From: Girardia tigrina
Lineage: Eukaryota
Assembly (NCBI GenBank): GCA_001938485.1
Contig: MQRK01218853.1
Span: forward strand, 1 to 64,000
Length of the DNA stretch: 64,000 nucleotides
Direction of reading: 5' to 3'
Position 1 is the stretch's first letter; each line of letters starts with the position of its first letter. The notes under the pieces are model-generated. The model searched no databases and was not told where the DNA came from. It saw only the letters and a list, made by a program, of their open reading frames with translations. Below, in pieces: positions 18,107 to 51,360 of this stretch. The translations under genes and the position numbers were made by a program.

Positions 18107-18196
18107 ATGGATGAAGAAATAGCAGGAATGACTTATGAGGAAATGAGATTGAGACTTTCGTTAATAAATAGTGAGATCAAAATTTTAGAATCCGAT
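18107..18196 (+). pseudogene. PSMC3: Duplicated 5' fragment (30 codons) of PSMC3
   Basis: Near-identical to 19381-19470 (two synonymous differences), plus a similar ~30-nt leader; diverges abruptly at GTATTA. Confidence 0.8.
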
Positions 18197-22678: not shown

Positions 22679-22753
22679 ACATTACAATATCTAATGAACG
22701 TCCTATGTAATAAAATTATAATGTTTAATAAACGCTATTTGAAAATTATATAT

Positions 22754-22819
<66 letters not shown>

Positions 22820-22896
22820 GTATATATAATTTTCCAATAGCGTTTATTAAACATTATAATTTTATTACATATGACGTTCATTAGATATTGTAATGT
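22679..22896. repeat. Near-perfect palindrome with about 80-bp arms around a (TA)n core
   Basis: acattacaatatctaatgaacgtc...tatatac mirrored by gtatata...gacgttcattagatattgtaatgt. Confidence 0.85.
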
Positions 22897-31194: not shown

Positions 31195-32294
31195 CACATA
31201 CATGTATATATAACATTTATATATTTACATTACATTCGCTTTAATAATATATTTAATTAATTATATAAAAAAATATATATAAAACTAGCTATTTTAATTA
31301 CAATTTTCATCTAAACTATTATTGGATTTGTAACTAATATTTTCAAATGCAGCTTAATTTCTCCATTGAATCTTTAAAAATGGAAATAAATAACATAATA
31401 TTTATTTCATGATCAAAACTTATGATGGATCTGAAATTATTCTTCACACAACATAACTTCATATTTGGTTTAGCCTTTCAAGATAACCAGACCTTTGGCT
31501 TCCTTTACGTGCCGTTATATGAATTTTGTCATTCTTCTCCTTGAATTTTATTTTATTTTGTCGTGAATATAACAAAATATATAAAATTGATGATAAAGCA
31601 AAAACCTAAAGAGTATGACTATTTGATTTATTGTAATGCAAAATAATTTATACAAGAATAATAATTTGAATATTTGACATAATTTTTATTTTTTTTTGAT
31701 TTATTGTAAGTTATTTTAAAGGATTTTTTAATCTTTTCAAAGGAACGAAGTTTATAAAAATTATAACTTAAATTTAATTCCGATAACCATCGCATATTTT
31801 CATTAGTTATAGTTGGTTTCAAATATCTTTTATTATCTCATTTAATTATTATTTTATTAATCTCAAAAAACTTACAGCTGATTATTTCTCTCTCTTTTGA
31901 CTCTTCTTTATTTTATTTCATTTAGAAGGTTTATTTCAATGTAATAGTAGCTTGACGAATTAAAAAAAATTTTTAAATACATCAATTGATTTATACGAAG
32001 AACTCCTTAAAGTAAAATTTAACCCATTGTTTGGATTTCTAAATTCATAATTAGACTATCTAAATTCTAACTATTTAGTAATAATAATATTTATAATAAT
32101 TAATAATAACTAGTTATCAATTCGTTGGATAATGAATTTAGTATTAAGTGTTTTGATTAATAGAAATAATTCAAACTAGTATTTAATTGCTAAAGGGATA
32201 TCTATGTCCTAATCTCCAGAAAACCGGTTTCCAAATAGAAAATAGAAATGTGGATTACAAATTCTAGAAATTATTCGACAAAATCGTACCCCGG

Positions 32295-32591
32295 AGTAGT
32301 ATAAAAAATGCTCGGATACTATCCTACCCTCGAAAAACGCTGTTTTTCGCGCCTTTTTCGAAGTTATAAAAAAATCGATATCCGACCCTCGAAAAACCCT
32401 CGAAAAACGCTGTTTTTCGCACCTTTTTCGAAGTTATATAAAAATCAATATTTTTATCGATAAAACACTATATTTTTCGAAAAAATCGCAATAATTCAAT
32501 ATTTTTATCGATAAAACGCATATAATATTCAAAATGTTATATTATTTATATCAAAAATGAGAACTCGAAGAAAAAAAAATAGGTACCAAAA
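32295..32591 (+). repeat. Polinton left TIR (297 bp)
   Basis: Reads as exact reverse complement of 49245-49541; internal duplication of accctcgaaaaacgctgtttttcgc.cctttttcgaagttata and palindromic ttttatcgataaaa twice. Confidence 0.95.
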
Positions 32592-32612
32592 AGCCATACC
32601 GTAGTATGGCTT
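32582..32612 (-). terminator. Hairpin (9-bp stem, cUACGg loop) plus T5 downstream of pPolB
   Basis: Minus strand AAGCCATAC-TACG-GTATGGC-TTTTT-GGTACC; function inferred. Confidence 0.5.
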
Positions 32613-32684
32613 GTTTTATCATTTAGAAATTAAAATTATCATATAGAAACTAAAATTATCATATAGAAACTAAAAAATAAAAAT

Positions 32685-35600
32685 TTATAAGTTATAAGTA
32701 TCAAATAATTCCTCAGTATTATATCCATGTGGAAAAGAATTTATAGTTTTTATAATATCGTCTTTTATTGTCATATCCAGAAGTCCCCTTTTTATTTGTA
32801 TGTATAATATTTATTTCATGGTTTACAGATTTAATACTATAATTTTTTATATCAATAGTTTTATTATTAAATAAAACATTTATTCTATTTTCAAAATTTA
32901 TCTCATCTTTTTTTACCCCTTTATTCTTATTCTTATCAATTATTTTATTTTGATTTTCTATTATTCTATAGGAGTAGTCTTTCGATTTTATAGCTAATAA
33001 ATATTGAATAAATTGTCCCCTTTCCAATTCATCTTTGAATTTCCCTAAATCAGTTGGATGTACATAATCTTTTAATTTATTATTAATATTTTCTAAATTA
33101 TCATAAATTTGAACAAATAATGAATCAGTGTCACTATAATGCATTTCAATGTTTCCACTTTCAAAATCCCAAATTCGATGAAGAGTATTATATGCAAAAT
33201 CATACATAATCAGTTTAGATATTTCCAAAACCGTGAATCCGATGTAATTAAATTTATTGAAATAGATTTTTGATTTTTGCATTTCAAGAGCACAAAGATT
33301 TTTTGAGAAAGGATGAATGAATTTGAATTCCGGTTTTCCAACTAATTTTTTAAAATATTTCCCATTATTAACTATTTTTATGTTGCAGTGATTTCGCACA
33401 TTCTCTAATGTTTTCCCATAGAATGCATTATTCAGTAATTTAAAAAAGAAATCTCCAAATGAATCTTTTTTTCTGTTTTGCTTCTTTTCGTTTTTCAATG
33501 TTAAATTCAATATATGGTTTAACCAAGGTGATTTTTCATATTTCAATTTCCTGTGTATTTTCTTTAGAATCATTCCTTGGCTCAGATAGAAATCTAATGT
33601 TCTTCCTTCAACAATATATTTTTCTTTATCGAGAAAATTCAGTGTTAATTTTTCAATTTTTGAATTTTTTAAAGGGTAAATCAGATTTCCGCTTGATGAA
33701 TTTTTTGAAGGAAAAACAGATTTCTCATATTCACTCATTTCTTCCATTGGGATATTCGGTATGATTCGTTCGGGGCAAAAAGGATAATAGAATGATTTTT
33801 TTCTTTATGGAATCAGGATATTCCAAATCTACTTCATAAACATATCCATAATTACTGTTTTCTTTCGATTTATGGTATATTTTCCTTCGACACCACCTCA
33901 TTTCTCCATTTGGTAAAAAATAAGTCATTGCCGCTGCATATAATGAATTCGCATCCAAATAGAATATATAACTTTCACGGAAAAATTTATTAAAATCAAA
34001 ATTCTCTTTATTTTTTATCATTTTAAATTCTTCAATAATTAAATTATATTCCCAATTATCAGATTTATATATATCAAAATCAAATTTTTCCTTATCTTCA
34101 CATACTAAATAATCATTATAAAACTGTCTAAAGAAATCAATTGAACTTGAAATATATTCATTAAAATTTTTATCAACATGTGGATTATTAGCTTTCGCAA
34201 ATCGATTTCCTAATACCCCCTGAAAATCCACCTCTAGTTCCTTCCTCAAAAAATAATAACATATCATAAGTTTCTTCTTTAAAATATTTCAATTTTACCC
34301 CAGTAAATTTCATGCCAAACATCCATGTTAAACCAGGAGTTGAAAATCCGTAACATGGATCTATCTGAAAATAGTTCATACACATTTTTCGAAAATTCTC
34401 AAAGAAGTCAGCCAACAACATGACATCGGTTTTCATGTATTGCATCATGTAATCTTGTAAATTTCTACATTTCAAATCTTTCCAATTTTGTTTCGCTATT
34501 TCATATTCCGCTTCGGAAATATTTTTCTGTGTTAATATATCGAAGAATTCACAATGAGGAGGTAATCTCTTTTCTTTTAATTTCTTTTTAATATCTCGAT
34601 AGTTATTTCCAGTTAAATAACTATAAGGAAATATTCCTTTTTTTGGAGCATAAATATGTTTTGATGAATCTAGTTCATGGGGATTTGACAAAAATAATAA
34701 ATTATTTTCATTTAAAATTTTACATTCTTCTTTTTTTAATTTGCTTGTACAATTTTGTAATGAGGATCCATCACCAAATTTCCTTGCGTCTAAAAATCTT
34801 ATACATCCCAATTTGAAAACTTATATAATCTTCACTAGTTTTTGGTAAAACACTTGTTTCAATATTCATCTCATTACATTTAATAAACAGATCTTTAAAA
34901 AATAAATGTGTATCGTATTTCGCTCCATTGAAAAAAAATAGTGGTATAAAATTAATTTGTTTAGCATTCAGATTACAAATATTATGTGAGGCCCCTCTAT
35001 ATTCCCCAGTTAAGTGATTATGATCTCTAACTTTATATTCTTCAAATTTTTCTCCACAATAATGACAAACTTCTGCATCTTGAAAATCTTCTTCCTGTTC
35101 TGGAGTCATTGCCAAAGGAATGTTTCTCTCTGCAAATATCTTAGTATATTTTTCGTTAATTTCCATTATATAATTAATATATTGTGTAATAACATCTTCC
35201 CCAATGAATTCTCGATAATAACTTTCCTCAATTTCAGGGATATCCGAATGAAAATATACCCCATTTGAAATTGCTTTCTGCCTAACATCATATTTTATTT
35301 TTTCAGTATCTTTAATCTGTGCTGGGGGAGTAACCTCATTGAAATCGATAAAATCCGTTGTTGATGTTTCCATGAATTCATTGTTAAAATTTTCTAATCT
35401 ATAATTCGCACATTCAAAATCACTATAGATGACAAATGGAACCCGATTCTTGTATTCCCATTTTTCGAAAAAATAATAATCTTTTTTCGGGAATACCGCT
35501 TTCGTTGGTTTATTTTCCAAACAATTTTCTACATGTTTTCTAAATCCTGATTTTGTTGTGAAAAAACATAAACAATTCAAACATAAATCTTTTCTATGAC

Positions 35601-37041
35601 CATTATTATCATTATTCAATAAAGTTGCTAAATTTTTACAATAAACTAAATGGGAAATTTTTCTTTTTCTAATTTTTTTAGTATATTGAATTATATTAAA
35701 TCCTTTGGTATTTAAATGGGAAAGCAGAATACAACTCAATTCTCCTTTTTGATTACAATTGAAAACATTAACAAGATTATTATCATTAGTTTGTTGTTTA
35801 TTGAATTGTTTAAAATCTTTTATTGTACTTGAAAATTTTATATCTTTGAATATTAAATCATAATATTCTTTATTCTGATTATAAAAATTTTTATAGTGGT
35901 AAACTTTCTCTTTATTATTTAAATTTCTAATTTCTTCCCATTTGTGGTATTGAATGAAACACCAGAGAAAGCATTTATCATCCTCATTTTTTATATTAAT
36001 AATCATACGAGAATTTTTAAGATTTTTCGGTAATTCCAAATAAACCCCTGAAATGGCATTTGTATAATTCATCCGTATTAGTGTTAGACTTTCTATCCGT
36101 TTCACTGATAAATCCGAAGGTCCTTGAATATGATTTGTGATTCCCTCATTTATCTCCATATAGGATTTATCTACAAATCTTCTTAAATCCGATCTCGTTC
36201 GAATTGTTTTTATTTCAGAATTCTTGATCACTGGAGAACATTCCAGATAAGTCGCTGTATCGGGATCAATTTGAGTTTTTCTTTCATAAATAACTGAAGC
36301 AGACAATTCCAATTTATAAGGCATTTTCTTTTTCTGATTTTTTAAAATATTAATTAAATATTCCACTTCTTCTTTCCCGATAACAAATTTATTTTCCGAT
36401 TCCGGAAACCGATTTATTAAATAAGAGCATTCATCATTTTCAACTATTTCAATGTTTTCATCTTCACTAATTGCTCCTCCTTGAAGATTCACGTTTCTTA
36501 TATGTTGAATACTTCTATTATGAGAAACAATTCCCGATCTATTTTTAAAATGTCTTCTACAATATCGACAATATAAAGGATCATCGATATCATCATTATC
36601 ACTCGAACACATAGATTCAACTTCTGTTTCCGTTTCTGTTTCCGATTGACAAGAATAATACCCATCATAATCCAAATCATCCAAATCCATTTCTTGTTCT
36701 GATTTTTTTTTATTATTTATTTTTATAAGAAAATCTTCATCATCACTTTCATCTTCAAAATTGAAATCGATATCTCCTCCAATAATATTCTGGCCAATAT
36801 TATTAGATTCAGTATCTGTTTCAATCTCATCTTCATCTCCAACATCAATATTATCGGATTCAACTTCTGTTTCAACCTCCTCATCATCTTCAACATTGAT
36901 ATAGAAATCAAAATTAAAATCATATTTTTTTATATCAGGATTAGAGAATAACCACTCAAAATTTAAACTCTCTTCATCCCAAATATCAAATTTTCGCGAT
37001 CTCTTTTTTAAACTTAACTTTTTCAAAAATTTAACCAACAT
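32685..37041 (-). pseudogene. Protein-primed family B DNA polymerase (pPolB) with Zn fingers and endonuclease-VII-like insert; frameshifted
   Basis: Exo motifs YSDFE, FFNGAKYD, Y...DV; CHYC..RDHNHLTGEYRGASHNICN; LDANSLY; KLLNNAFYGKT; YSDTDSL. Indels near 34808, 34218, 33800, 33520/33470 and 32750. ATG at 37041 preferred over the TTG at 37083. Confidence 0.93.
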
Positions 37042-37075
37042 TTTCTTTAAAAATATTATAGCATTTCCCAAATCG

Positions 37076-37105
37076 GGTGCCAAAAAGCTATTCCGAAGAA
37101 TAGCT
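37076..37105 (-). terminator. Hairpin (8-bp stem, cUUCGg loop) plus T5 upstream of pPolB
   Basis: Minus strand AGCTATTC-TTCG-GAATAGC-TTTTT-GGCACC; function inferred. Confidence 0.5.
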
Positions 37106-37166
37106 ATTGGTTATTATTTTATTGCTGAAAATAAAAATATTAGATTATTTATGACCATTTAAATTT

Positions 37167-37418
37167 TTATTCATTTTCATCATCACAAGAGGAACTATTT
37201 GTCGGTATATATTCAGGATCAGAATTATTTTCTGTATTCGGTATATATTCATTATTATTATTATTTTCTGAATTGGAATTATTATTATTTTTAACAGCTT
37301 GATAAACTTTTTCAAAATTCGATTTTACATGATGTTTTTTACTATCCAAATGTCTCTGTTTATTTTGTATTAATCCTTTAAAATTGCATACATCACAAAT
37401 AAATATTTCTTTCTCCAT
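37167..37418 (-). CDS. Small C2H2-type zinc-finger protein (Polinton)
   Basis: CDVC..NKQRHLDSKKH; ATG preceded by A-run; C-terminal EYIP repeat. Confidence 0.7.
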   Translation of the reverse strand: MEKEIFICDVCNFKGLIQNKQRHLDSKKHHVKSNFEKVYQAVKNNNNSNSENNNNNEYIPNTENNSDPEYIPTNSSSCDDENE

Positions 37419-37441
37419 TTTATTTTTTTTTATTTTTATTT

Positions 37442-38074
37442 TTATAATTTCTCTAATAATATTCTTAATTTTTCCAAATGATCATTCGTAATTAACGTAT
37501 TCGTTTTATCCTCTCTTTTTTGTCCGTCATTTAATTTTCCAATATTTATTTTACACTTTTCCAAAATATCTTTACTCATTTTTAACTCGTCATCAGTTAT
37601 CAAATTATCACTCAATGCNNNNNNNNNNNNNNNNNNNNNNNNNNNNNNNNNNNNNNNNNNNNNNNNNNNNNNNNNNNNNNNNNNNNNNNNNNNNNNNNNN
37701 NNNNNNNNNNNNNNNCCATTATCTCCAATATTCGATAAAACCCCCAATCCGGCAAAAGCAGCAGTTAATGGAATTGTTAAAGCTCCCAAAGTTGAAATGG
37801 AAACAACAATTATCGCTCCAACAGATCCAACCAAAGTTAATACCCCATTACAATATTTTACTGTTACAGCAATTCGTTTCCATCTTTTATGCAATTTCTG
37901 ATAATGGGCAATATGTTCGCTTAAATATTCCAAATCTTTCTTAAAATACTGAATATGTAAAGTATTCAATTCTTTTTTATAAGTTTCAGGAGTTTCCTCT
38001 TTTTGTTTATATTTTAACATAAAATCCTCCAACTCTTTTTCCGGATATAAATTAGCATTTTCTTGTTCATCCAT
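37442..38074 (-). CDS. Polinton membrane-associated protein (two hydrophobic helices)
   Basis: GVLTLVGSVGAIIVVSISTLGALTIPLTAAFAGLGVL; ALSDNLITDDEL; partly N gap. Confidence 0.7.
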   Translation of the reverse strand: MDEQENANLYPEKELEDFMLKYKQKEETPETYKKELNTLHIQYFKKDLEYLSEHIAHYQKLHKRWKRIAVTVKYCNGVLTLVGSVGAIIVVSISTLGALTIPLTAAFAGLGVLSNIGDNXXXXXXXXXXXXXXXXXXXXXXXXXXXXXXXXXALSDNLITDDELKMSKDILEKCKINIGKLNDGQKREDKTNTLITNDHLEKLRILLEKL

Positions 38075-38103
38075 TTTTGAGAAGATTTTTTTTCTATGAA
38101 ATA

Positions 38104-39471
38104 TTACTTGTTATCATCCATTTTATTAAAACTATTTCTATTATACTCCCACTTATCATCAAATAAATAATAAAATATAAAATTTAAAAAAGTAACTTCA
38201 CCTGATTTATTCTTTATAAAATATATTTTTCTTTTTTTAAATTCATAATACCCAAAATTTGATGCATATGTTAAACGAATATGTTTTTCAAAATTTAATT
38301 TATAATTATATATATTCACATAAAATTTATATGGTTCTATTTCAAATATTTCCGCAAAATTTAAATATGGAAAAGTAAAATCACCTTCTTTTTTCTCATA
38401 TTTTTTAATGAATTTATTTTCAAATAATTTCTCACTCTTTTTAAGAAAACCTAAATCCGATATTTTTAATTCTTTTAATATTTTCATTCTTAGATTTATT
38501 ACTTTTAGGGAGATTTCTTCCATAAAAAATTTAAATGATTTATTATAAAAAGATTTTTCAACGTATTCTTCAAATTCATAATAATTTTTATTGGAAAATT
38601 TTTTATCAAGATTATTCAGTAAGATTTTTAAAATTTCAAAAGTTCGCGGGGTATTATACGGAGTATTAAAATAAATATTTAACTCTTTATCTTTTAATCT
38701 ATTAAATAATGAACGTAAATGTTGAAAAGGGAGTTTTAATAATATATCTTGAATATTATATTTTTTTAATGTTGCATCATCAACTTCTTCTCGTATTATT
38801 ATCTTATTTTCTTTAGGGATATAGAAATTATACCGTCTCGAATTTTCTGCTAACATACTAATATATTCGTGGTATTCATTTTTTATATATTTAAATTTAT
38901 TGGTTTCAACGCTAAAATTGAAATCTTTAATTTTTAAATTCATATTCCAAATTGGTTTTAAAACTGTTAGATATTCAATTTTTTCATCTAATTCTTCAAT
39001 TTTTTCCTCTATTTCCGTTTTTACGGTTTTCACTATTGAAACAATTTCCATTTTCACGGATTTCACTATTGAATTTATTTCCGTTTTCACGGATTGTTTC
39101 GCTATTAAATCAATTTCCGTTTTCACGGATTGTTTCGCTATTTAGTCAATTTCCTTTTTTACGGATTGTTTCATTGAATCCCGATTCTGAATAAATTGTT
39201 TCTTCATTTCATCCCGATTCTCATTAAATTGTTTCACCATTGAATCAATCTCTTGTTTCAATTTTATAATACTTTTCTCAACATCCATATTCCCAATCTC
39301 GATTTTTTCTTTAACATGCAAAGAATTCACAGGATCGTCACCCTGTTCATTCACAAATCTACTATCCAATATCCGATTATTTGCTTCAATTTTTTCAAGT
39401 ATTTTCTCTTCTCGCATTCCACCAATCTGCATCACTATTCCCAATTTATTCACAGGAATGTAATTATTCAT
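38104..39471 (-). pseudogene. Polinton coiled-coil repeat protein with one in-frame stop
   Basis: ORFs 39142-39471 and 38104-39126 are in frame; KQSVKTEIDLIA tandem repeats; TAA at 39142-39144 corresponds to TTA in the next repeat unit. Confidence 0.7.
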
Positions 39472-39562
39472 TTTTTATAAAATTAAATCATAAAAGGGTT
39501 TCAGGCCATAAACAATCTAACATTTCCTCAATTATATCATCAAACTTTTGCGTCTTATTAAT

Positions 39563-39946
39563 TCACTGATTCATTTTAAATAAAAAATATAAACTCAATT
39601 GACCACATAATCGTGTTCCAAAAGGTTGTACTTGTACAGAATTATATATACATTTTGGAAAATCTGGTAAAGGCTCTATTCCATACGGATCAAAATAGTA
39701 AGATACTGATTTCTCATTATCAACATTCCCATTAAAATATCCCATCCAATGACTCCCCTTTTCATCCGAATCCTGGTAATTTATTATTGATATTTTTTTC
39801 TGATTTATTTTCGCATCCACTTCATCAGCCATCAAGACTTGTATTTCAATTTTCAATTTTCTTGCCCAATCTTCAAGTTGTCTATTCGTTGAAGTGTCAA
39901 CTCCGAACATTAGCATTATGTCTCCCAAAGTAAAGAATTCTATCAT
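39563..39946 (-). CDS. Adenain-like cysteine maturation protease
   Basis: IINY..GSHWMGY..YFDPYG..QVQPFGTRLCGQLSLYFL: His, Asp, Gln, Cys in order. Confidence 0.9.
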   Translation of the reverse strand: MIEFFTLGDIMLMFGVDTSTNRQLEDWARKLKIEIQVLMADEVDAKINQKKISIINYQDSDEKGSHWMGYFNGNVDNEKSVSYYFDPYGIEPLPDFPKCIYNSVQVQPFGTRLCGQLSLYFLFKMNQ

Positions 39947-40083
39947 TTTTTATAAAAAATTTTTTATAGCAAGATAGAATTCTTTACCCGAAGGGTTACC
40001 AAATTCTATCATTTTTTATAAAAAAATTTTTATAGCAAGATAGAATTCTTTACCCGAAGGGTTACCAAATTCTATCATTTTTA
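39930..40083. repeat. 66-bp tandem repeat with nested hairpins over the protease start
   Basis: Units start 39936, 40002, 40068; gtaaagaattctatc / gatagaattctttac 15-bp stem; accc-gaa-gggt mini-hairpin. Confidence 0.85.
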
Positions 40084-40092
40084 TGAGCATAT

Positions 40093-40947
40093 TCATAATA
40101 TACTCTGTCTTAAACGTAAACAGATATTTATTTTTTCATTTCGGAAATCAATCAACCGCCCTTTATTATCAATAATTCTCACAGTAAAATCATTTATTTG
40201 ATAAATATATACTGGGTAATAAGTTACAAACGCTGGTCTTTCTGAAATTTTATACCCGATTGGAACTGTAAATGCTGGAAACGAATAAATAATATTAGAG
40301 TTCTTTACATTCTCATTTTCTTTATTTCCATCATCAAACGAAATGTATCCTCCATTCGCAATATTGCAATCGATATTACAGATATTTATATCCGTGATTT
40401 GAAAAGTATATTTCGATTCGTAATCTTTCACTGGACCTTTTATATTAACCTTATATAAATTCTCTTCATCATCATCTTGCCAAATTGCAAAATTATTATT
40501 TGTATCAAATCCATGCATTGAGTATAGAAATGATCTATGATTGAATTCTAATGAATATTTATCGGGTATATTAATTGTTGATTTTGCAGTTTTTTCATCG
40601 GTTTTCACTTGAACAATTTGTTGTGATAAATCTTCAATTTCTTTATTGATTTCCTTAAATCCTTTCGCCCCTGGTTTCAATTTTAAATCCGTATATACAT
40701 ATCCTTTTTCCTTTTCCACATTTTCGAATTTTTTATCAGCTGGAAATTCTTTTCCTTTATAGAGTAATGTAATTTCATTATTCCTTTCTGTGATATTTGA
40801 AACCAGATTATAAGTCGAGAACCAGACTAATCCGATTTCGTATTTATGTTTTGGATCCAGATTCAACTGAACAGGTAACTGAACCTTGATCTCTGATTTC
40901 GCAGCAGAAATTGTAAACGTTGTAGAAAATCCACTTGATTCACCCAT
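40093..40947 (-). CDS. Minor capsid protein (penton, single jelly-roll)
   Basis: LPVQLNL..YEIGLVWFSTYN; INICNIDCNI; IIYSFP..GYKISERP..YYPV..VRIIDNKGRLIDFRNE; typical Polinton position. Confidence 0.82.
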   Translation of the reverse strand: MGESSGFSTTFTISAAKSEIKVQLPVQLNLDPKHKYEIGLVWFSTYNLVSNITERNNEITLLYKGKEFPADKKFENVEKEKGYVYTDLKLKPGAKGFKEINKEIEDLSQQIVQVKTDEKTAKSTINIPDKYSLEFNHRSFLYSMHGFDTNNNFAIWQDDDEENLYKVNIKGPVKDYESKYTFQITDINICNIDCNIANGGYISFDDGNKENENVKNSNIIYSFPAFTVPIGYKISERPAFVTYYPVYIYQINDFTVRIIDNKGRLIDFRNEKINICLRLRQSIL

Positions 40948-42178
40948 TTTTATCAAATATTTTTTTCAATAATTCCTCCTGTTTTTCTTTTGTTAATAAT
41001 TTTTTCCGTCTTAATTTCTTCATAATATCAATAATATTATCATCCACTCCATCATGACCAGCCTTCTTTGCAGCGATATATTTATACAAATACGAAAACA
41101 TTGAAATCGGATCTTTAGGTATTCCTTGTCCTTCAGGTGGTGGCGGTATTGCTTTTCTTTCTGGAGCTGGTGATTGAAGAGTATCGTAAAATTTTTCTTT
41201 TGGTTTTCCTTTTTGTGATCGTAACCGTGGTAATGATGATGTTCTTTCCTTTTTCAGGGGTCCTACTGGTTGTGCAAATTCTCCTACATTTCCTTCAGCT
41301 TTATTTAAAGCATCAAAACAAAGTTTAGTATAATAATAATCTCTTTCTCGAGCGTTTATTCCATTATTTAGTAGAAATGATAAATATTTATCAAATGATG
41401 TATGTTTTTCTTCCAGAGTATATTTCTTTTCATAAATAATATCATAATTCCCAATTAGAAAATTATTGAAAATCTCATCAAGCTCTACCCGAACCCGATT
41501 ATCATTTCTCACGAAATAATATTTTCCGCCCTCATTCACGAGAATATATGTATGTTTATTGAATGTCATAAATTGTTTTCCCTCGATATTCTTTCCAAAC
41601 GTTGGACGCAACATCGAAGTTGGAGTTCCGAAATTTTCATAATATTTTGTCTCAAAGAATATTTCCAAAAAGGGAGCAGCTTGTGGTAATTGAGGTTCGA
41701 ATTTCGTTCCCAATTTCTGTGCCAACTCTCCCAATAATTTTTTTGTTATCTCATGATGACTGGTGATAAATTCCTTATCTTGAGGATATTTCTCACTCAT
41801 TTCCTGCATTATCGGAGCTAATTCCTGTTGGATTAATAAATATTCCTGCTGGTATTGATCAAAAAAAGATTTGGATTTCACATTGTCATAATTCTTTATA
41901 TCCACCTCAATAAAACGTTTGAGATCGTTTTCCAATTTAACGACTTTGGTTTTTAGTGCAGAGATTCTGTCTGTGATGGGACCTTGTAATCCAGTCATTA
42001 AAGGTTGGAACATTTTCGACATTGACGATTGAAAATCGGATATACCGCTTTTATATTCCAATTCTTGGCGATTGTATTCATGGATTGCTAGTGAGGATTG
42101 AGCCAAACTTTTTCGTAAATAATCAAAATATTTTTGGTGTTCATTCAAATTTTCTCGTTCATTTAATTGTATAGTCAT
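40940..42178 (-). CDS. Polinton conserved protein of unknown function
   Basis: Intact 412-aa ORF; MFQPL near N-terminus and C-terminal AAKKAGH..NIIDIMKKL, reminiscent of a conserved Polinton ORF. Confidence 0.7.
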   Translation of the reverse strand: MTIQLNERENLNEHQKYFDYLRKSLAQSSLAIHEYNRQELEYKSGISDFQSSMSKMFQPLMTGLQGPITDRISALKTKVVKLENDLKRFIEVDIKNYDNVKSKSFFDQYQQEYLLIQQELAPIMQEMSEKYPQDKEFITSHHEITKKLLGELAQKLGTKFEPQLPQAAPFLEIFFETKYYENFGTPTSMLRPTFGKNIEGKQFMTFNKHTYILVNEGGKYYFVRNDNRVRVELDEIFNNFLIGNYDIIYEKKYTLEEKHTSFDKYLSFLLNNGINARERDYYYTKLCFDALNKAEGNVGEFAQPVGPLKKERTSSLPRLRSQKGKPKEKFYDTLQSPAPERKAIPPPPEGQGIPKDPISMFSYLYKYIAAKKAGHDGVDDNIIDIMKKLRRKKLLTKEKQEELLKKIFDKNG

Positions 42179-42193
42179 TTTTTAAACAAAGAT

Positions 42194-42922
42194 TTAAATC
42201 TGATTCTGATTATTCGGATCCCAAGGTTCCAAGTATAATCCCTTTCCCGTGAAATGACATTTCAATTTCCCACCCAATTTTTTATTTTTATTCAATAGAG
42301 CCTTTTTCGATTTTGAATCTTTATCTGATTGATTTATTTGTTCACGAAAAAATTTTTGAATTCCTTTACCAGTATAATCATCCAAGTACAACCCTTCTCC
42401 TTTACTATTTTCTTTAAAAACATCTATTGTTACATCAATCATTTTTTTCAAATGTGGATCTAATTTTGATTCAAATTCTGATATTTTAGTAATAATTGGT
42501 AAAATTCCTCCTTTTTTTCCTTTTCGTAATCCCGATCCTGTTGGTGTTGTAGTTGGTGTATTCAATTTATCAAGTTCCTTTTGTTTTATTTGTTTTTCAA
42601 TTTCTGCTTTCTCGGTTTCAACCTTATTCTTTTGTGCTTCACGAGCATTTGCAACAGTTTTTGCAACTCCAGTTGCTACTCCTGCAGCTGCTCCTCCTAC
42701 TGTGAAAAGAGTAGTTAAACCAGCAATTATAGCGGGGATAAGTGGTAAAATTCCTCCACTGTGATAATATCCACCAATCTCCCCTCCATTCTTTTCTAAA
42801 TCTTTAATCTTTTTCAACATTTCCCGATTTAAATACACTTCCTTTCCATTCACTCGAATCAAACCGGGAGTTTGTGTATCTATTAATTTTCGTATTTTTA
42901 ACGCATCTGTTTTTGGAGCCAT
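42194..42922 (-). CDS. Basic core-like protein with GG-ILP repeats and amphipathic segment
   Basis: HSGGILPLIPAIIAGL..GGAAAGVA; KKGGILPII; GEGLYL / GKGLYL repeats. Confidence 0.72.
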   Translation of the reverse strand: MAPKTDALKIRKLIDTQTPGLIRVNGKEVYLNREMLKKIKDLEKNGGEIGGYYHSGGILPLIPAIIAGLTTLFTVGGAAAGVATGVAKTVANAREAQKNKVETEKAEIEKQIKQKELDKLNTPTTTPTGSGLRKGKKGGILPIITKISEFESKLDPHLKKMIDVTIDVFKENSKGEGLYLDDYTGKGIQKFFREQINQSDKDSKSKKALLNKNKKLGGKLKCHFTGKGLYLEPWDPNNQNQI

Positions 42923-43034
42923 TTTTTAATAATTTTTGTTCTCGCTGAGAAAAAAATTATTAACCTTCGGAGATCCAATATTTTATTTTTCACAAAATTA
43001 AAATATTTATCAAACCTTCGGTAATAAATATTAT

Positions 43035-44449
43035 TTATTTCTTATCCACGGTTCCTTTGAATGGTTCGATTATCGTGATTTGGGATCCGCGTAGAGACAT
43101 TTTTATTTTTGCTTCTTCCAAAATTACGCAATACATTTTCGGTTGAAAAGTTTCAGATTTCCGAATGAGAAGTGTAACGGTAACGTTGTTAACATCNNNN
43201 NNNNNNNNNNNNNNNNNNNNNNNNNNNNNNNNNNNNNNNNNNNNNNNNNNNNNNNNNNNNNNNNNNNNNNNNNNNNNNNNNNNNNNNNNNNNNNNNNNNN
43301 NNNNNNNNNNNNNNNNNNNNNNNNNNNNNNNNNNNNNNNNNNNNNTTTCATTCACCATTGGCTGAATAGGGTAATAGGTATTGTTCAATTTCAGCTGAAT
43401 CGAGAATTCTTCAGTATCCATATGAAAACGGGAATTATTCCAGTTGTAATTTGAATCTTGTAATTTTATTCCCACGAAAATATATCTTGGTAAATAATTT
43501 AGATATGCAACATTCCAGGAGAAAACTTTCTCGGTTTCCAAAGAATACTCTACGGATATGCGTTTGAGGAAATCCACATAAATCGGTATGTCTTTAACAT
43601 TTAATCGCTCTACCAATCGAGCATAATAATCGATATTCAATTCCAATTGATTCATATGCAGTTCCAGGGAATTTATCGTTAATTTTCCTTTGTTTCCTTT
43701 TTCTGAATAAAAATACTTTTATCATCAAGTTTTCGCACCATTGTGAATTCTAGAAGAATATTGTAAATAACTCGGTTATAATTTTGCAGAAATCCAAAGA
43801 GATGTTTCAGTGAGAAAGCACCTCTAAATCTATTTTTCTTAAACTGATCTTTACGAATTTCAAATCCAATATTTTGGTATCGTAGACCCGCTGGAACTTC
43901 TTTGGTATTGTTAGTACCTCCGCTCGATCCGGGAGTATCCTCTTCATCATCAATTTTTTTACTTGTAGATGGCGTTGATACCGCAGCTATTTTCTCTCCA
44001 TACATCATTTCATAATGATCTGGAATAAAATCAGTTATTTCTCCGCAAGGTAAATAGTTTCGGTCTTTAGACACATATAATAACATATCCGATACAACTC
44101 CAGGATTATTTATCGATTCAACGACATAGTTACCTAATTTCAAAGACATGCATGAAAATAATTTAGGGAAGAAGTTGGTCTCCAAAACACAATCACTGTC
44201 TTTAATTTCAATATCATAAACCAGTTTAGCATTACAAATATCTATTGGATCAGTGGTTTGCGATAATTGGTAAACCAGAGTTCCGTTCTGATTCATGTAT
44301 GCAGCCGATCCAGATGTTGGAGCTAGTTTTATTACATCGGATTTTTTCAAAACATGAGTAAATTCCTTATTATTATCAAGATCTAAAATTCCCAAGGGAA
44401 TCATCCCTGTGGTTAATTGATTTATTGGTTTTTCAAAGCTTGTTTCCAT
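43035..44449 (-). pseudogene. Major capsid protein (double jelly-roll), split by one frameshift
   Basis: NFFPKLFS..LKLGNYVVESINNPG; SLKHLFGFLQNYNRVIYN..LEFTMVR; LPRYIFVG..QLKLNNTYYP. One added T near 43710 joins the ORFs (IFYSEKGNKGKLTINSLELHMNQ). Confidence 0.85.
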
Positions 44450-44504
44450 TTTTTACATATAGAATTATTTTGTACTTAACAGGTGAGTTTGAAGAACTCC
44501 TTGC

Positions 44505-45400
44505 TCACTTTTCAATTTGAGTCTTTTGTAAATCCGCTTCATAGAACCGACCGAATAGTTCCTTATTATTTTTTTCAGGATTTATCAATTTATAAGTCAC
44601 TGGATATTCATGATCCAAAACTTGAGAGATTTCATAAATTTCCCTGGTCCACTTCGGTTCATAACCTTTTCTAAAAGTCTGTAATTTCCGTTCCCGATTT
44701 TTATTTTGACTACCTTCAGGTTTATCTCCGCTGAATAATTTTGTTTCGAATACTCGAACTCGATCTCCGACTTTGAATTTTGGTTTCACTTTTTTCTTGG
44801 GTAATTTTTGTGGTTTTGGTTCTGGAATAGCATCATTAAACATTACATCGTGTGGAATTTGCCGGATAGAGCTATGAATTCTATTATTATAATCAGATAA
44901 TATTTCTTGCATTTCCGACTCAGTGATAACTTTCTCTCCTTTCTCGGTAAATAGTTTATAGATTTCAGATTTTAATGTTCTATTAAATCTTTCAATAAAA
45001 ACAGGTTTTTCCTTTACGAAATACATTTTAATATTATTCGCTTTTAGGAATTTTTTATCAAATTCTTTGTTTGTGAATTCAGCTCCCTGGTCGACCCATA
45101 AATATTTCGGAATTGGTAATTCAGTATTTCCTAATTCCGTTAAAATTGAGATGAAAGCTTGGATTATCGATTCAGATTTTTTATTGGGTAAAAACCGAAA
45201 GAAACCATAACGGGAATAAATATCTATAACTGTTAAAATATAATATTTCCAAATTTTTCTGGTTTGTCCCGCTTTAGTGATTGTTGTCGCAACGACACCA
45301 TTTTCAGTATCTTCTTTAGCGTCAACAGTTATCAAGTCGGCTGACCAAATCCGATTCAGTGATTTAATATTTATTCGGAGAAAGTCTTTATTTTTTTATG
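44505..45400 (-). CDS. Retroviral-like (rve) integrase
   Basis: IWSADL (upstream of listed ORF), YILTVIDIYSRY, LWVDQGAEF, IERFNRTLK, YNNRIHSSI, KFKVGDRVR..KGYEPKWT..GRFYEADL. Confidence 0.93.
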
Positions 45401-45925
45401 TTCTTTATGTAATTCTTTACTTAATTGCTTTCTCGAAGAGGAAGAATTAAGTAAATCTCGATTCTCTCGATCTTTAGCTAATTGTTTATTCGAATTTTCC
45501 AATTCACCACCAAAAGTTATTTTACCTTTCATAATTGTTTTTATGAGAAATCTTTCGAATTTTTGGCGTAAAGTCAGATCTTGAAGTTGATTGATATCGT
45601 GAATTAAATTTATATCAGCTAAATGCCGATCTCGTAAATCTTCAGATCTGTAAGCGATATCATGTTTGTAACATGCCTGATCCAATCCGTCTACTGGTTT
45701 ATTATCTTCACCGATTGGTTGATCTTGACCGTCTAATCGAATATCCAACCGAGTCAATGGCCCGCAATAATTTTTACCTGGTAAATGCAGTTCACCGTAT
45801 TTTGTTTTCATAAATCCAGGAATATATTTCGCAAAATTTCCCATGGATTGTTGAACGTCGCCTCCTTTGGATACGCGCTTCGCACTATCAAAGTCGTCTC
45901 CACCTTCTTTTTTAATAATCATCAC
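45371..45925 (-). CDS. Parvovirus-VP1-like phospholipase A2 domain protein, apparently the N-terminal part of the integrase ORF
   Basis: ELHLPGKNYCGPLT (Ca loop), LDQACYKHDIAY (HD), RHLAD; ends with LSKELHK just before an A7 frameshift into the integrase frame. Confidence 0.85.
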   Translation of the reverse strand: MMIIKKEGGDDFDSAKRVSKGGDVQQSMGNFAKYIPGFMKTKYGELHLPGKNYCGPLTRLDIRLDGQDQPIGEDNKPVDGLDQACYKHDIAYRSEDLRDRHLADINLIHDINQLQDLTLRQKFERFLIKTIMKGKITFGGELENSNKQLAKDRENRDLLNSSSSRKQLSKELHKEHKKIKTFSE

Positions 45926-46097
45926 TTTTGGAAGTAATTTATTTTTTTCAAAATCAAATGTACTTCTTAATAAAAAATTTCCAATACTACCAAGCTATTT
46001 TTCTATAGACATGATATTAAAGGTATACTGTTAGATAAGGAAAGAATAATATTATTTATTTGAAAAGGAAAATCTAAGTTTTTTATTTTTATTTTTA

Positions 46098-46997
46098 TTA
46101 TTCACTTTCAAGATCCGAGCCAATATAAGGATTTTCAATTGATATTTCTTCTTCTGTAAATAAATTTTTATAAATTTTTTTTTCAGATCGATCGAAATAA
46201 ATATAATTATATTTTTTCCGCTGCCAGTGGTGAATAATTTCCCGCTGATATTCGTTGATATTTTCACTATTGGGTAAGAGATCAGAGAAGATATAAGATT
46301 TATCCCGTTTACCTAATTCGAAAAAAATGAATCCAGTGGAATTATTCCGGATAGAATGCTTATCCAATCCGTAGAAAGTTTGGGAAATGTATATCGTATT
46401 ACAATTATTATGGCGTCCTCTGGTGAAATACGATTTCATTATTTTCTGATCTGACAGATTCACCACGTCATCAAAAATAATGAGATTTTTTGCATCTTTT
46501 GGTAGTGAGTCGCAAGCGACGATTTGATTGGGATCCGAGGAAAATAGGACTGATATCGCTTTATCAGGATCTCTAATCAAGTATTTTGATTTATCAATAT
46601 TATTAATATTATTAATAAATCTTTTATACGCATAAACGAGATATTCCGGAGGAGGAACATAATCTTTATCAGAATTATTTCCTAATTCTTTTTTTATCAT
46701 TTCCAGTAACATTTTCTGTTTATCGAAAACATCACGAATTCCCATTTTTGTTAAAGATGATCCATCCTCAAAACGGAATCCACTTGAAATAACTTTCAAT
46801 TCCGGTTGATCAATAGTTGTGGAATAAAATATTAGATTGTTGAAATCGAGAAATCCATCTTCTAGTAACATTTTAGTTAATAAAACATTTTTACCACATC
46901 CCGATTCACCAACTATTAGTAATCTAAAGTTCTTTTGGAATAATTTATTCTTGAATTTCGACTCGTACATTGTTAAAATATTCAGTTTTTCCTTCAT
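46098..46997 (-). CDS. A32/FtsK-like DNA packaging ATPase
   Basis: LLIVGESGCGKN (Walker A), LIIFDDV (Walker B), FTRGRHNNCNTIYISQ, IRNN; ATG at 46997. Confidence 0.92.
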   Translation of the reverse strand: MKEKLNILTMYESKFKNKLFQKNFRLLIVGESGCGKNVLLTKMLLEDGFLDFNNLIFYSTTIDQPELKVISSGFRFEDGSSLTKMGIRDVFDKQKMLLEMIKKELGNNSDKDYVPPPEYLVYAYKRFINNINNIDKSKYLIRDPDKAISVLFSSDPNQIVACDSLPKDAKNLIIFDDVVNLSDQKIMKSYFTRGRHNNCNTIYISQTFYGLDKHSIRNNSTGFIFFELGKRDKSYIFSDLLPNSENINEYQREIIHHWQRKKYNYIYFDRSEKKIYKNLFTEEEISIENPYIGSDLESE

Positions 46998-47111
46998 TTT
47001 TAAGTTGGAAAAGTATTTTTCCAAGCTTAAAAATACGGAGGCGAAGCCGACCCCTTCATTTTTAATTTTTTGGAGAAAAAATTTTGAAAATTCAAATTAT
47101 TTTAAAAGAAA

Positions 47112-47615
47112 ATGAGTGAAACAAAGAAAAATATTTTGGTGGAAATGTGTTTAGAATGTGATTTTTACAAATCACTATTAGAAAATAAGGATTTTCTTTA
47201 TAAGAAGGAAAAAGAAATTTTTATAAAAGAAAAAGAATTTTATAAAAATAAAGCGGAAGAATATAAATTATTAGCATTTCAATCTCAAACGATGCTAAAG
47301 AATAAAAACGAATCATCTGATTTTAATAGTAATAAAATTCAACAATTGGAAAATACTATAAAACTTCTAAAAGAAGAAAATTATAATCTTAATGCAAGAT
47401 TAATACAAAAAGATGAAATTAATAATGAGGGGACATTTTTGAAGGATCTTAAAGAACATAATTTAGAAGAAAAAATTAGTTCTTGGAAAATTGATGATGA
47501 GAAATCTTCTTCTATTAATGAATCTGCAATTAGTGAATCAATAACATCATCGAAAAGAACTGGAAACTGGAAAGGAAGAACACCAGGAAGTAAAAATAAA
47601 AAAACTAAAATTTAG
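47112..47615 (+). CDS. Coiled-coil protein with C-terminal AT-hook-like motif
   Basis: Intact ORF with AAAGAAAATG start; KGRTPGSKNKK. Confidence 0.65.
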   Translation: MSETKKNILVEMCLECDFYKSLLENKDFLYKKEKEIFIKEKEFYKNKAEEYKLLAFQSQTMLKNKNESSDFNSNKIQQLENTIKLLKEENYNLNARLIQKDEINNEGTFLKDLKEHNLEEKISSWKIDDEKSSSINESAISESITSSKRTGNWKGRTPGSKNKKTKI

Positions 47616-47765
47616 AATTTAGAATTTAGAATTTAGAATTTAGAATTTGGATTTGGAAATTTAGAATTTAGAATTTAGAATTTAGAATTTAGAATTTGGA
47701 TTTGGATTTGGATTTGGATTTGGATTTGGATTTGGATTTGGGATTTGGATTTGGATTTGGGATTT
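47611..47765 (+). repeat. (TTTAGAA)n / (TTTGGA)n tandem array
   Basis: (TTTAGAA)5, (TTTGGA)2, (TTTAGAA)5, then about 11 TTTGGA-type units. Confidence 0.95.
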
Positions 47766-47801
47766 TGAGAATTTATAAATTCTAATATATTTTTAAAGAA
47801 A

Positions 47802-48119
47802 ATGACTAGTAAAAATTTTGGAAATGTTTATGAAATTAAAGAATATAAAGATAAAAATGGGGTTGAAAAATATAAATATATACCAATAACAAAAGAAAAG
47901 CTAATAGAAGAAAAGCTAATAAAAATACAAACATATAAAAATGCTATAATAAATTTAAATTATTTTATACATAAAAATGAAAAAAAATATCCTGATTGGT
48001 GGCTTATTAAAAAGAAAAAAAAAGATAGAAAAATGTTATTTAAAAATATTATTGAGCTTGAAAGTGAAGCTTATGAAATAAGCATATGTGATGATGAAAA
48101 TCTTGAAGATTTTATTTAA
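47802..48119 (+). CDS. Polinton hypothetical protein
   Basis: Intact ORF with the same TTTAAAGAAAATG start context as pPolB. Confidence 0.55.
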   Translation: MTSKNFGNVYEIKEYKDKNGVEKYKYIPITKEKLIEEKLIKIQTYKNAIINLNYFIHKNEKKYPDWWLIKKKKKDRKMLFKNIIELESEAYEISICDDENLEDFI

Positions 48120-48283
48120 AATAATAATTTTAATTTTTTTTCCATTCGAATATTAAAATTAGTATATCACTATCGTTTAGATAGGGATTTATTGCGAATG
48201 GATAGTGTAAAAGTACCGCGTTTTTTCAGGTATTTTACACTATATTTTATTAAAAAGTAAAGTTTTCTTAAGTTTTCCGCGGT

Positions 48284-48733
48284 TTAACTTATTTTTTCAT
48301 TATCCTCTTCATTTGTTAAATATTTATTTGCTGAAGACGTGAACGTAAGTTCCAAAACAGATGTAAAATATTTTTTATATTTTTCTTCGAAAGGATCACG
48401 ATTTTTATTCAATTCATATTTTCTATATTTTTCATCCAATACGCGGCATTGATTTTCATATTCAGTTTGTAATTTAACATTTCCTGCTTCTCCCAATTTG
48501 GATGTTGCGACGGCTAATTTTTCTTCCGTTATATTCAATTTTTCTCTCGTGTGGAGAAAATCAATTGTTATTTTCTTATTGGTTTCACCAACTATTTCCA
48601 GTGCAGAATTTAAAATTTCTATTTCACGAATATTTTTTTGACCAATATCCGAACGATCTTGAAGAGGTAATTTCATAAAATTTATTTCTTTTTCTCTGGC
48701 TAAATTCCTAGCCACGCGATCCTTCCTAGCCAT
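48284..48733 (-). CDS. Polinton hypothetical coiled-coil protein
   Basis: Intact 149-aa ORF with TAAATG start. Confidence 0.55.
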   Translation of the reverse strand: MARKDRVARNLAREKEINFMKLPLQDRSDIGQKNIREIEILNSALEIVGETNKKITIDFLHTREKLNITEEKLAVATSKLGEAGNVKLQTEYENQCRVLDEKYRKYELNKNRDPFEEKYKKYFTSVLELTFTSSANKYLTNEEDNEKIS

Positions 48734-48781
48734 TTATAAAATCGTTTTTTTATGTTCAAGTTCCATTTTTATTACTATATT

Positions 48782-49221
48782 TTAATCTTGTTCTTTTTCA
48801 CTTTCACTTTCAGTTACAACAGATTTAAATGTTTCTTCAATTTTTCCTTTTCCGATTTCAATTTCTTTTTTCGGTTTCGGTTTCGATTTTAATTTTGGAA
48901 TTGGTTTAGGATTTTCTTTTTCTTTATCCATTATTTTCTTTCCTTTTTTCGAAGCAACTGGAACACTATGACGATTCAAAGATGGAATGCCCATATCTTT
49001 TAACATTCTAGCGAATTTATACTCAGTACTTCCAATTTTTTTACAAGCATCTTTATGGTTAAATCCTAAATCTTTATACTTTTGATATTCCTCTATTTTT
49101 TTTCGTTTGCTGTATTTATATTATCAATTATTCTTAAACGAGAATATTCTCTCGCTAATCCAAAATCGAATTCCTCCATTCTTTTCATGTTCGCAACATC
49201 AGGTGAATTTTTTTTACTCAT
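48782..49221 (-). pseudogene. HTH-like basic protein, frameshifted at an A8 run
   Basis: ATG 49221 MSKKNSPD..ANEKK; one added A near 49100 gives IEEYQKYKDLGFNHKDACKKIGSTEYKFARMLKDMGI. Confidence 0.6.
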
Positions 49222-49244
49222 TTTTTCTTTAAAATAAAATAACA

Positions 49245-49541
49245 TTTTGGTACCTATTTTTTTTTCTTCGAGTTCTCATTTTTGATATAAATAATATAAC
49301 ATTTTGAATATTATATGCGTTTTATCGATAAAAATATTGAATTATTGCGATTTTTTCGAAAAATATAGTGTTTTATCGATAAAAATATTGATTTTTATAT
49401 AACTTCGAAAAAGGTGCGAAAAACAGCGTTTTTCGAGGGTTTTTCGAGGGTCGGATATCGATTTTTTTATAACTTCGAAAAAGGCGCGAAAAACAGCGTT
49501 TTTCGAGGGTAGGATAGTATCCGAGCATTTTTTATACTACT
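49245..49541 (-). repeat. Polinton right TIR (297 bp)
   Basis: Reverse complement of 32295-32591. Confidence 0.95.
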
Positions 49542-51360
49542 CCCCGGTCGCAAGTTATTTCTCTGAACCAAAAGGTTAAGGCAAATCACGCAAATTATAT
49601 GGTGACATGAAATAAAATTATTTGGCATTATGTAAAGGTACAATATCGTTATTAAATAAATCCAATTGATTAAATTTGCTTTTATAAATAGTAGTATTTT
49701 AGATGTCTTTATATTGTGAATTTTCAGAATTAAACGATGTAATGCAAGGTTGTTTAAAGTAATTTCCTAATGTTTGATCAGATGGATTGTACTTCTCAGA
49801 CTCTCGGGGATACCAAGAACAGGTCTGGAAAGAAACCGTATTAAAGTTATTCAAAAAAATGATTCGAATAATAAGTCGATGATCAATTATAAGTTCCTAG
49901 GTTTGTCATGTGGGCGATAAGACCAATGCATTCCCAATCATTAACAAAACAATTCCATTACACATTATTTACAAATTTATTTAAAATAAATCAAAAGAAA
50001 CTTGATAAAATTTTTCTAGAGGGATTTATTATAATATTACTCGACATAATTTAATCAACATTCAGATAAAACTAAATTGATAAATAATTTACCAATAAAT
50101 TATAATTAATAATCAATAATACCATTATTGATTATTAATAGGGACTAATCAACAATAAGTATTCAGATGAACGAAATAAATGCACACACCTAACCCAACT
50201 ATCTATTATTTTTTCTTATGACTTCTCAATTAATTTTCGCAATCAATTATCATCAACTAATCATTATATTTACAGGCTTAACCTTTATATTCATATCTAC
50301 ATATTTACATGACGCCCTGGCTTCTACACCTCGTACTCCTTCACAACTCTTACTTCACTACGTCCTAACCCTGCGTTCTTGCTCAACACCGACTCTTTCG
50401 ACTTCCCTACCTTCAAACAGCAGCTTCTTCTCATACAATTCATCGTCGCCTCATAACGACTATCAATACGGCGGGTCGTCCCTTGAACTCTCTTCATAGT
50501 TACATGAAATATCAATAATAATGATGAAATATTACTATAATAATTAAAAGAAGAAGGGATTAAATACATATATTGAAATTCATCGAATCGTGGAACAAAA
50601 CGATCGTAATCAACAATTAATAATAATAAAAAAAATAAAATAAAAGATAATAAAAGGGTAGGTGTTACCTCGTTCGGGTTCCTGAAATAATAATAGCAAC
50701 TGAGTTCGCGAAATAACTCCGACCGAAACGAATGTACAAAATAATAACGAAGGTAGCCGCTCAAATTAATTTGTTTTGCTTTCAAAATTGTGTTGAACTG
50801 AAATAATTTGGCGAAGTAAATCGGTCAAATATTGGTTGTCGTAAAATTCTGGAGGAATGGATAATTGCGCTTAAATTATCACCTCATGTCAGAACGCACC
50901 GGACGCCGGCACGTGCACTGTAGGCACCCGCGCTGTTTATCGCTGCGACCGGATTTGGGTAATAATTAAAGTAATTAAATCCGGCAAACCACCCTCTGAT
51001 AATTGCTTATACAGGATGTGAGGGGAAAAACAATTGCAATTATCTGCAATGACTATCTGGTGGACTTGTTTGGAAAATTATTCGACGGTACTTTTAATTA
51101 ATTAATTAATTAAAACTTATTATTTTTTTTACTTTTAAAAGACTCAAAAGACCGGCTGCGACTGAACAAAAGGAACGGGCCAAAACACAGGGACCCCCTC
51201 TCACGCCTGGCGTTCGGTATGCTTGAAAAAAATTTAAAAATAACGGGGATAGTCGAGTTAGACTATCCCCACAAATTTTCGCTAACGGTTTCATGCGTAC
51301 TGGGCGTCGGATGAGAAGGAGGGTTTCCTTCAGGTTATTTATTCGAGCCGTGTCGTAACA

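Follow-up and report, generated by a model that had tools for sequence, protein, structure and literature searches.

We analysed a 64,000-nucleotide stretch of the Girardia tigrina genome (assembly GCA_001938485.1, contig MQRK01218853.1, positions 1 to 64,000; hereafter the window), which carries a Polinton of 17,247 bp at 32295..49541 on the minus strand, with 28% guanine plus cytosine (GC). On its own the window copy is ordinary, and the result of interest is the strict target of its family. Our favoured reading, which we regard as quite probable, is that the window holds a recently inserted, frame-broken copy of a large Polinton family that sits almost only at the hexamer CCYRGG, likely through direct reading of this hexamer by an integrase fused to a phospholipase A2 (PLA2) domain. 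The usual description of Polintons stops at their 6-bp duplications, and a strict target would offer a handle on how their integrases recognize DNA. Here, elements of 15-17 kb insert at a single hexamer thousands of times more often than chance would give. The CCYRGG target also predicts the places at which such elements build up in the AT-rich genomes of flatworms, where Mavericks have expanded, as is reported for Dugesia (10.64898/2025.12.11.693146). A bolder version, to which we give somewhat less than an even chance, is that an undescribed sequence-specific integrase, PLA2-fused and without a chromodomain, reads the palindrome CCYRGG directly, and that it marks a widespread animal polintovirus clade packaging an entry enzyme and an integrase as one polyprotein and using rare GC-rich landing sites in AT-rich genomes.

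Target site of the family

The ends of the family were searched in the same genome with a pattern of the terminal first 19 bases, which returned 94 ends (1 in the control), 91 of them with six flanking letters. The hexamer adjoining these 91 ends was exactly CCYRGG in 47 cases and differed from it by one mismatch in 32, by two in 11 and by five in 1; that is, 79 of 91 ends lie within one mismatch of the motif, and 90 of 91 show a perfect CCY or RGG half-site. The background in about 72 kb of flanking DNA (29.6% GC) was 7 exact CCYRGG (9.7e-5) and 2.1% for the half-site, which places the enrichment of CCYRGG at the ends near 5,000-fold. Six insertions account for twelve of the ends, and two flanks are duplicates, leaving about 83 independent insertions. 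When the 21 ends that had defined the motif were excluded, 33 of the 70 held-out ends still had an exact CCYRGG (hand count).

The same behaviour is seen in a second subfamily, whose terminus differs. A search for its ends found 42; among these, 30 loci following contig order yielded 29 distinct ends, 25 of which are exactly CCYRGG (21 of 25 held out), and a Polinton open reading frame (ORF) lies within 1.5 kb at 25 of the 30 loci. The copy-number check proposed in the original prediction, an earlier reading of this DNA from its letters alone, gives at least 136 family ends in this genome (94 + 42), so the window element is no lone newcomer.

The motif coincides, in register, with the duplicated hexamer, while the DNA outside the hexamer is diverse. 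For six elements, a single contig holds both ends at a distance of 14.5-17.4 kb, and a perfect 6-bp direct duplication borders all six. One shared target repeat as the cause of the motif is ruled out, since the flanks differ save for two duplicates. No target preference of Polintons was found in the literature searched, with subscription papers and Repbase outside its scope, nor in the passages available from PMC8097293, PMC11131425 and 10.1101/2025.02.07.637071.

Ends and age of the window copy

31800..32288, no strand: interrupted host repeat, left part (start approximate)
32289..32294, no strand: left target-site duplication (TSD) CCCCGG, one mismatch from the family target CCYRGG
32295..49541, minus strand: Polinton, 17,247 bp
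32295..32591, plus strand: left terminal inverted repeat (TIR), 297 bp, starting AGTAGT
49245..49541, minus strand: right TIR, 297 bp, same sequence as the left
49542..49547, no strand: right TSD CCCCGG
49548..49789, no strand: interrupted host repeat, right part

The identical TIRs and the perfect CCCCGG duplication claimed in the original prediction are both confirmed. The two TIRs agree at 297 of 297 positions, with the first mismatch at base 298, and the termini read AGTAGT..ACTACT, the AG..CT ends typical of Polintons. CCCCGG borders the element on either side as a direct repeat. The insertion interrupts a roughly 740-bp host repeat that is present in multiple copies, and the interrupted one is 94-98% identical to its sisters; in 18 of 19 other copies a single hexamer is read through at the empty site, and the 19th stops at a contig end. 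CCCCGG is a true TSD, of the 6-bp length of Polintons/Mavericks, because the empty host-repeat copies carry one hexamer. The hexamer as a part of the TIR is ruled out, as it is a direct repeat and single at empty sites.

Among the six both-ended copies, only that of the window has identical TIRs, the other five showing 3-21 mismatches plus gaps; among the 40 scored of 441 candidates, the best other TIRs reach 90-92%. The window copy is likely the youngest of the six, since TIR identity is found only there. The recent integration that had been proposed is therefore supported in relative terms, by these TIRs and by the 94-98% identity of the host repeat to its sisters. Collapse of the TIRs during assembly, named beforehand as what would remove the argument for youth, was tested: the five copies with 3-21 TIR mismatches rule out a general homogenisation by the assembler.

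A phospholipase A2 domain fused to the integrase

44505..45922, minus strand: PLA2-integrase fusion in two overlapping frames, 45371-45922 (PLA2) and 44505-45395 (rve core with D, D and E)

The integrase core matches rve (PF00665, E 9e-10, above the cut-off) and contains the DDE words. N-terminal to it sits a PLA2 domain (PF08398, E 2e-10), which was absent from the gene list of the original prediction. Of 28 sister loci holding both domains, 22 have a single open frame across them, mostly of 440-490 amino acids (aa). The catalytic HDxxY of PLA2 is present in 27 of 29 sister loci and the DDE words in 27-29 of 29. Against sisters, the ratio of non-synonymous to synonymous substitution rates (dN/dS) is 0.14 for the PLA2 frame and 0.11 for the integrase. 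The calcium loop of PLA2 reads YCGPL throughout the family, the commoner form being xxGPG. In 25 of 27 sisters, FGG stands at the join after the PLA2 domain, and a pattern search found a protease-site-like word in 6 of 21 fused database proteins, compared with 0 of 160 control stretches. No Chromo match was obtained in the window integrase frame or in proteins P0003-P0005.

The best database identity of the PLA2 frame is 55%. The fusion is also seen in three database proteins, and 21 of 150 PLA2 relatives, many of them fragments, have an integrase match. In the ESM Atlas, three clusters (72-184 members) hold both domains with scores of 0.81-0.83, two of them with chromodomains; we take these as leads only. 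Judged from such matches, the fusion is common in databases and not unique to the Girardia family. The available parts of PMC8502044, PMC5803895 and PMC3671162 describe PLA2 as a separate gene. No description of a PLA2-integrase fusion was found in the literature searched, Repbase reports and subscription papers again being outside its scope. A conserved fusion under purifying selection would lend indirect support to a particle stage.

Polymerase, packaging and capsid genes

32719..37041, minus strand: pPolB, four overlapping frames (34771-37041, 34188-34820, 33731-34288, 32719-33804), with an endonuclease VII/HNH domain
39563..39946, minus strand: adenain-like cysteine protease, 127 aa, open; dN/dS 0.22
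40093..40947, minus strand: predicted minor capsid protein (penton), 284 aa, open
43035..44449, minus strand: major capsid protein of the double jelly-roll type, two overlapping frames (43679-44449, 43035-43718)
46098..46997, minus strand: A32-like packaging ATPase, 299 aa, open

The six genes named in the original prediction (pPolB, integrase, ATPase, protease, major and minor capsid) were all recovered by domain or fold matches, and every core gene lies on the minus strand. pPolB matches PF03175 weakly (Pfam E 1.8e-4 on one piece, below the cut-off) and carries an endonuclease VII/HNH domain (Endonuclease_7, E 8.8e-4). The best of its 242 homologs is 44% identical and itself matches PF03175 with E 4e-16, while few of the 120 homologs listed carry that domain; the named relatives, 31-35% identical, belong to the genomes of a leafhopper, a mussel, an aphid and a psyllid. 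Pfam gave no match in pPolB to OTU, the N-terminal domain described for the PolB of Beta adintoviruses; the protein contains a DDKCF cysteine word that we take to resemble a vOTU motif.

The packaging ATPase matches Pox_A32 (E 5.6e-10) and has a dN/dS of 0.09. Its Walker A motif is non-canonical and ends in GKN, in the window as in each of the 24 sister loci (out of 29) that yielded the motif; as the change is family-wide, a private lesion of the window copy is ruled out. The protease matches Peptidase_C5 (PF00770, E 0.0099). The major capsid protein matches PF21738 with E 0.003, and its sole homolog, 42% identical, is PF21738-positive. The minor capsid model, built from a 13-sequence alignment with a moderate predicted local distance difference test (pLDDT) of 59.9 (a single-sequence fold gave only 30.6), matches the mavirus penton with E 7.4e-7, followed by Sputnik and adenovirus pentons; it also matches minor capsids in a viral library. 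According to this model, the 284-aa ORF is the penton. PHROGs returned matches for the element proteins to endonuclease VII and terminase only.

Reading frames of the window copy

As assembled, the window copy has seven breaks, six frameshifts and one in-frame stop: three in pPolB, one in the integrase, one in the major capsid gene and one in each of two accessory genes. The element had been called complete, which holds for its ends, its TSD and its full gene set but not for its functional integrity as assembled; with five breaks in pPolB, integrase and major capsid genes, it falls outside the 'intact' class of Mavericks. Two short N runs also lie inside its ORFs. In sister loci, the pPolB break places are crossed by an open frame in 11/11, 9/10 and 6/8 cases (12 loci examined) and the capsid break place in 18/24 (29 examined). 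The right-end gene is unbroken in all six sister contigs, and the accessory gene at 38104..39471 is unbroken in 6 of 10 contigs with both its parts, remaining unjoined in the other 4. Public sequencing runs contain relatives only, covering at most 41% of the element's words.

In this state, the copy would not replicate, integrate or build capsids unaided and would depend on sister copies. The breaks may result from decay soon after insertion, from a defective parent moved in trans, or in part from assembly errors. The last origin, taken further, would mean that the copy is intact or nearly so in the animal, most frameshifts being sequencing or assembly errors in a very young and potentially competent provirus. 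We find this doubtful but worth keeping in mind. It would agree with TIRs that are identical here and in none of the other five both-ended copies, with the presence of all catalytic words, and with a fragmented assembly of 255,254 contigs. Moreover, frameshifts make up six of the seven breaks, versus 16 of 38 in sisters; within the core genes, the window has five frame changes and no stop, while sisters have 16 frame changes and 22 stops. However, the sister frame changes were possibly undercounted by the counting method, and the break zones hold homopolymer runs (5-7) that do not exceed the background length. The core break density of 0.62 per kb also falls inside the sister range of 0-1.62 (40 stretches), and one break is an in-frame stop, albeit in the gene that is unjoined in 4 of 10 sister contigs too. 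We retain the reading of a young copy with broken frames.

How the target may be chosen

Integration by an rve enzyme with a 6-bp stagger and the possession of a capsid module are established for the Polinton group. By analogy with the group, the window family would copy its linear genome by pPolB-driven protein priming from the TIRs, and its rve integrase would insert the element's ends into host DNA at a six-base spacing. For the group, the available part of PMC11161782 describes protein priming as the mode of replication, with a pPolB that has a terminal-protein domain. According to the accessible text of PMC5053271, the target preferences of retroviral intasomes are palindromic, with a flexible step at the centre. 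A symmetric target such as CCYRGG is likely read in an intasome-like manner, with base contacts at the outer CC/GG and a bendable YR step at the centre, although the reading would be far stricter than that of retroviral intasomes. The PLA2-integrase protein is likely cut at the conserved FGG linker by the element's own protease. It would probably be carried in the particle, where the PLA2 part may help membrane passage and so couple entry to integration.

The motif could alternatively be set by an agent other than the integrase, such as a host DNA-binding protein, the chromatin of GC patches, or a nuclease (for instance the pPolB HNH) opening CCYRGG. We judge this unlikely. The pPolB does carry an endonuclease VII/HNH domain, some flanks are locally GC-rich, and the element's own 17 kb contain no CCYRGG, a weak indication given that about 1.7 would be expected. 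However, the motif coincides base for base with the duplicated hexamer, is symmetric and keeps a fixed register, and tethering would lack such single-base register. The half-site tolerance (90 of 91 ends) fits a two-fold symmetric intasome, and there is a precedent among rve-type enzymes in Ginger1, for which the available text of PMC2836005 gives CCGG as 75% of TSDs. We regard direct reading by the integrase as the likelier source of the motif.

Several points weigh against this preferred reading. The window copy's own target, CCCCGG, is one mismatch off CCYRGG. That the integrase reads the hexamer is what we infer, and a host factor could choose the site instead. The YCGPL calcium loop leaves the predicted enzyme activity of PLA2 uncertain, and the protease-site-like word at the join occurs in just 6 of 21 fused database proteins. 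Seven breaks are hard to square with identical TIRs, and the skew towards frame changes suggests that some of these may be assembly errors. Finally, the particle stage is a prediction from the gene content.

It is very improbable that assembly merged several family members into the window element, so that its genes and ends would not describe a single molecule: identity to the same sister contigs does swing from 72% to 97% along the element and no public contig spans it, but the TSDs match on both sides, the host-repeat halves rejoin exactly, the TIRs are mutually identical and at most 92% identical to any other scored end, and module swapping is described for such elements in the available parts of PMC8502044 and 10.1101/2023.08.22.554363.

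Family and classification

Body relatives in the same genome show 72-97% DNA identity. Compared with the same sister contig (over 32600-43000), identity is 84-92% in pPolB and 72-77% in the accessory/protease block; this shift along the element suggests module exchange among subfamilies. Core genes have dN/dS values of 0.09-0.22 against sisters (61 partly overlapping stretches). As far as these ratios tell, the family is under purifying selection and its lineage diversified while active. The original prediction had proposed divergent proteins and possibly a new lineage: the best identities in the databases searched are 44% for pPolB, 42% for the major capsid protein and 55% for the PLA2 frame, but relatives of 72-97% identity share the genome. 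No related loci were found in viral contigs or in metagenome contigs.

The window element is a Polinton by every defining feature tested, in agreement with the earlier identification as a Polinton/adintovirus from ends, TSD and gene set. Besides its TIRs with AG..CT ends, it has pPolB (a broken gene in this copy), an rve integrase with the DDE triad, and the packaging ATPase, cysteine protease and both jelly-roll capsid genes. By its predicted proteins, it does not appear to be an adintovirus of either described module, because both a chromodomain and a stand-alone PLA2X are missing; a chromodomain has been called distinctive of adintovirus integrases (10.1101/2024.03.25.586562). Similarity, in the form of the weak match to PF03175 and of named relatives from insects and molluscs, suggests the Beta/group 1 class of PMC8502044. 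No reference adintovirus protein occurs among the named pPolB matches.

As far as the accessible text of Starrett et al. (2021, PMC8502044) goes, Beta adintoviruses/group 1 Polintons share with our element a weak-PF03175 pPolB, rve, FtsK/A32, adenain, hexon, penton and inverted terminal repeats, and no target preference is mentioned for them there. The Alpha virion module of that work has a stand-alone PLA2X with a pX tail, whereas PLA2 is here fused to the integrase and the motif that we take to be pX-like sits in a separate gene. Vertebrate Mavericks (Barreat and Katzourakis, 2021, PMC8097293) have the same (AGT)2..(ACT)2 ends, perfect 6-bp TSDs and mostly degraded copies; in the passages available, they are given eight conserved ORFs in two modules, in contrast to the single-strand core genes of the window element, and no target consensus. 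Ginger1 (Bao et al., 2010, PMC2836005), from hydra and others, shares an rve/Gypsy-type integrase and a highly specific GC-rich TSD (CCGG 75%, CCGT/ACGG 24%). Unlike the window family, it is described in the available text as cut-and-paste, 2.6-7 kb long, with a TSD of 4 bp, an integrase of another branch and neither polymerase nor capsid genes. Mavirus and EMALEs (Hackl et al., 2021, PMC8547959) share the rve integrase, pPolB, jelly-roll capsids, TIRs and the penton fold but are protist virophages, for which the authors found no sequence-specific integration, according to the part of the paper available. Finally, the pPolB2 Polintons of nematodes and oomycetes (Jeong et al., 10.1101/2023.08.22.554363) also have an HNH-type endonuclease inside pPolB; in the accessible text, all such polymerases belong to group 2, while the named matches of the window pPolB include no nematodes or oomycetes.

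Accessory ORFs and internal repeats

37167..37418, minus strand: 83-aa ORF, conserved among sister copies, its N-terminus C2H2-like
37442..38074, minus strand: 210-aa ORF with a hydrophobic hairpin, dN/dS 0.20
38104..39471, minus strand: fast-evolving accessory gene, same-frame ORFs 39142-39471 and 38104-39051 with an in-frame stop between
39936..40082, no strand: tandem 66-bp hairpin-bearing unit directly upstream of the protease start
40940..42178, minus strand: 412-aa conserved ORF, no family match
42194..42922, minus strand: 242-aa ORF with a GGILPL motif
47112..48119, plus strand: two accessory ORFs (47112-47615, 47802-48119) around a tandem array of 6-7-bp units
48284..49275, minus strand: right-end ORFs, 149 aa (48284-48733) plus a gene split over two frames

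The 210-aa ORF may resemble the 'cupiennin-like' accessory protein of adintoviruses, and the GGILPL motif of the 242-aa ORF is one that we take to be pX/PZ-like; the latter ORF had no Pfam match and a PDB sequence search was likewise empty. GasderminX and cupiennin-like genes mark the Beta virion module of adintoviruses; no gasdermin match was obtained with Pfam in the element ORFs. The 315-aa frame at 38104-39051 is the fastest-evolving part of the element (identity to sisters about 50%; dN/dS about 1.0 on a doubtful alignment) and is a candidate for receptor binding or host interaction; the gene that holds it contains coding repeats of 33-36 bp. The two tandem 66-bp units at 39936-40082 each comprise a small TTCG-loop hairpin and an AT-rich palindrome.

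Other features of the window and genome

The Polinton is flanked in the window by ordinary eukaryotic DNA with transposon relics, namely decayed Tc1/mariner, Gypsy-type and pogo-type pieces at 10336-11481, 13023-14883, 29186-29794, 56771-57816 and 59773-60587. A partial eIF3a-like frame lies at 2180-3247 (PF22591, E 2.6e-46). An intronless 1377-aa ORF on the minus strand (4618-8751) has no Pfam match and shows, by eye, a helical-repeat-like C-terminal half and a possible protease-like N-terminus. At 19372-20610, an intronless 412-aa ORF encodes an AAA ATPase subunit of the 26S proteasome, and the first 100 bases of the ORF recur at 98% identity 1.3 kb upstream (18097-18196); it may be a gene, a retrocopy or an assembly duplicate. 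A perfectly abutting 109-bp inverted repeat surrounds a TA microsatellite at 22679-22896, possibly as an assembly fold-back. Elsewhere in the genome, COX1 gave 31 matches, many of them broken copies, which fit NCBI table 9 (flatworm/echinoderm) with AAA falling on a conserved Asn and ATA on Ile, as judged from few codons.

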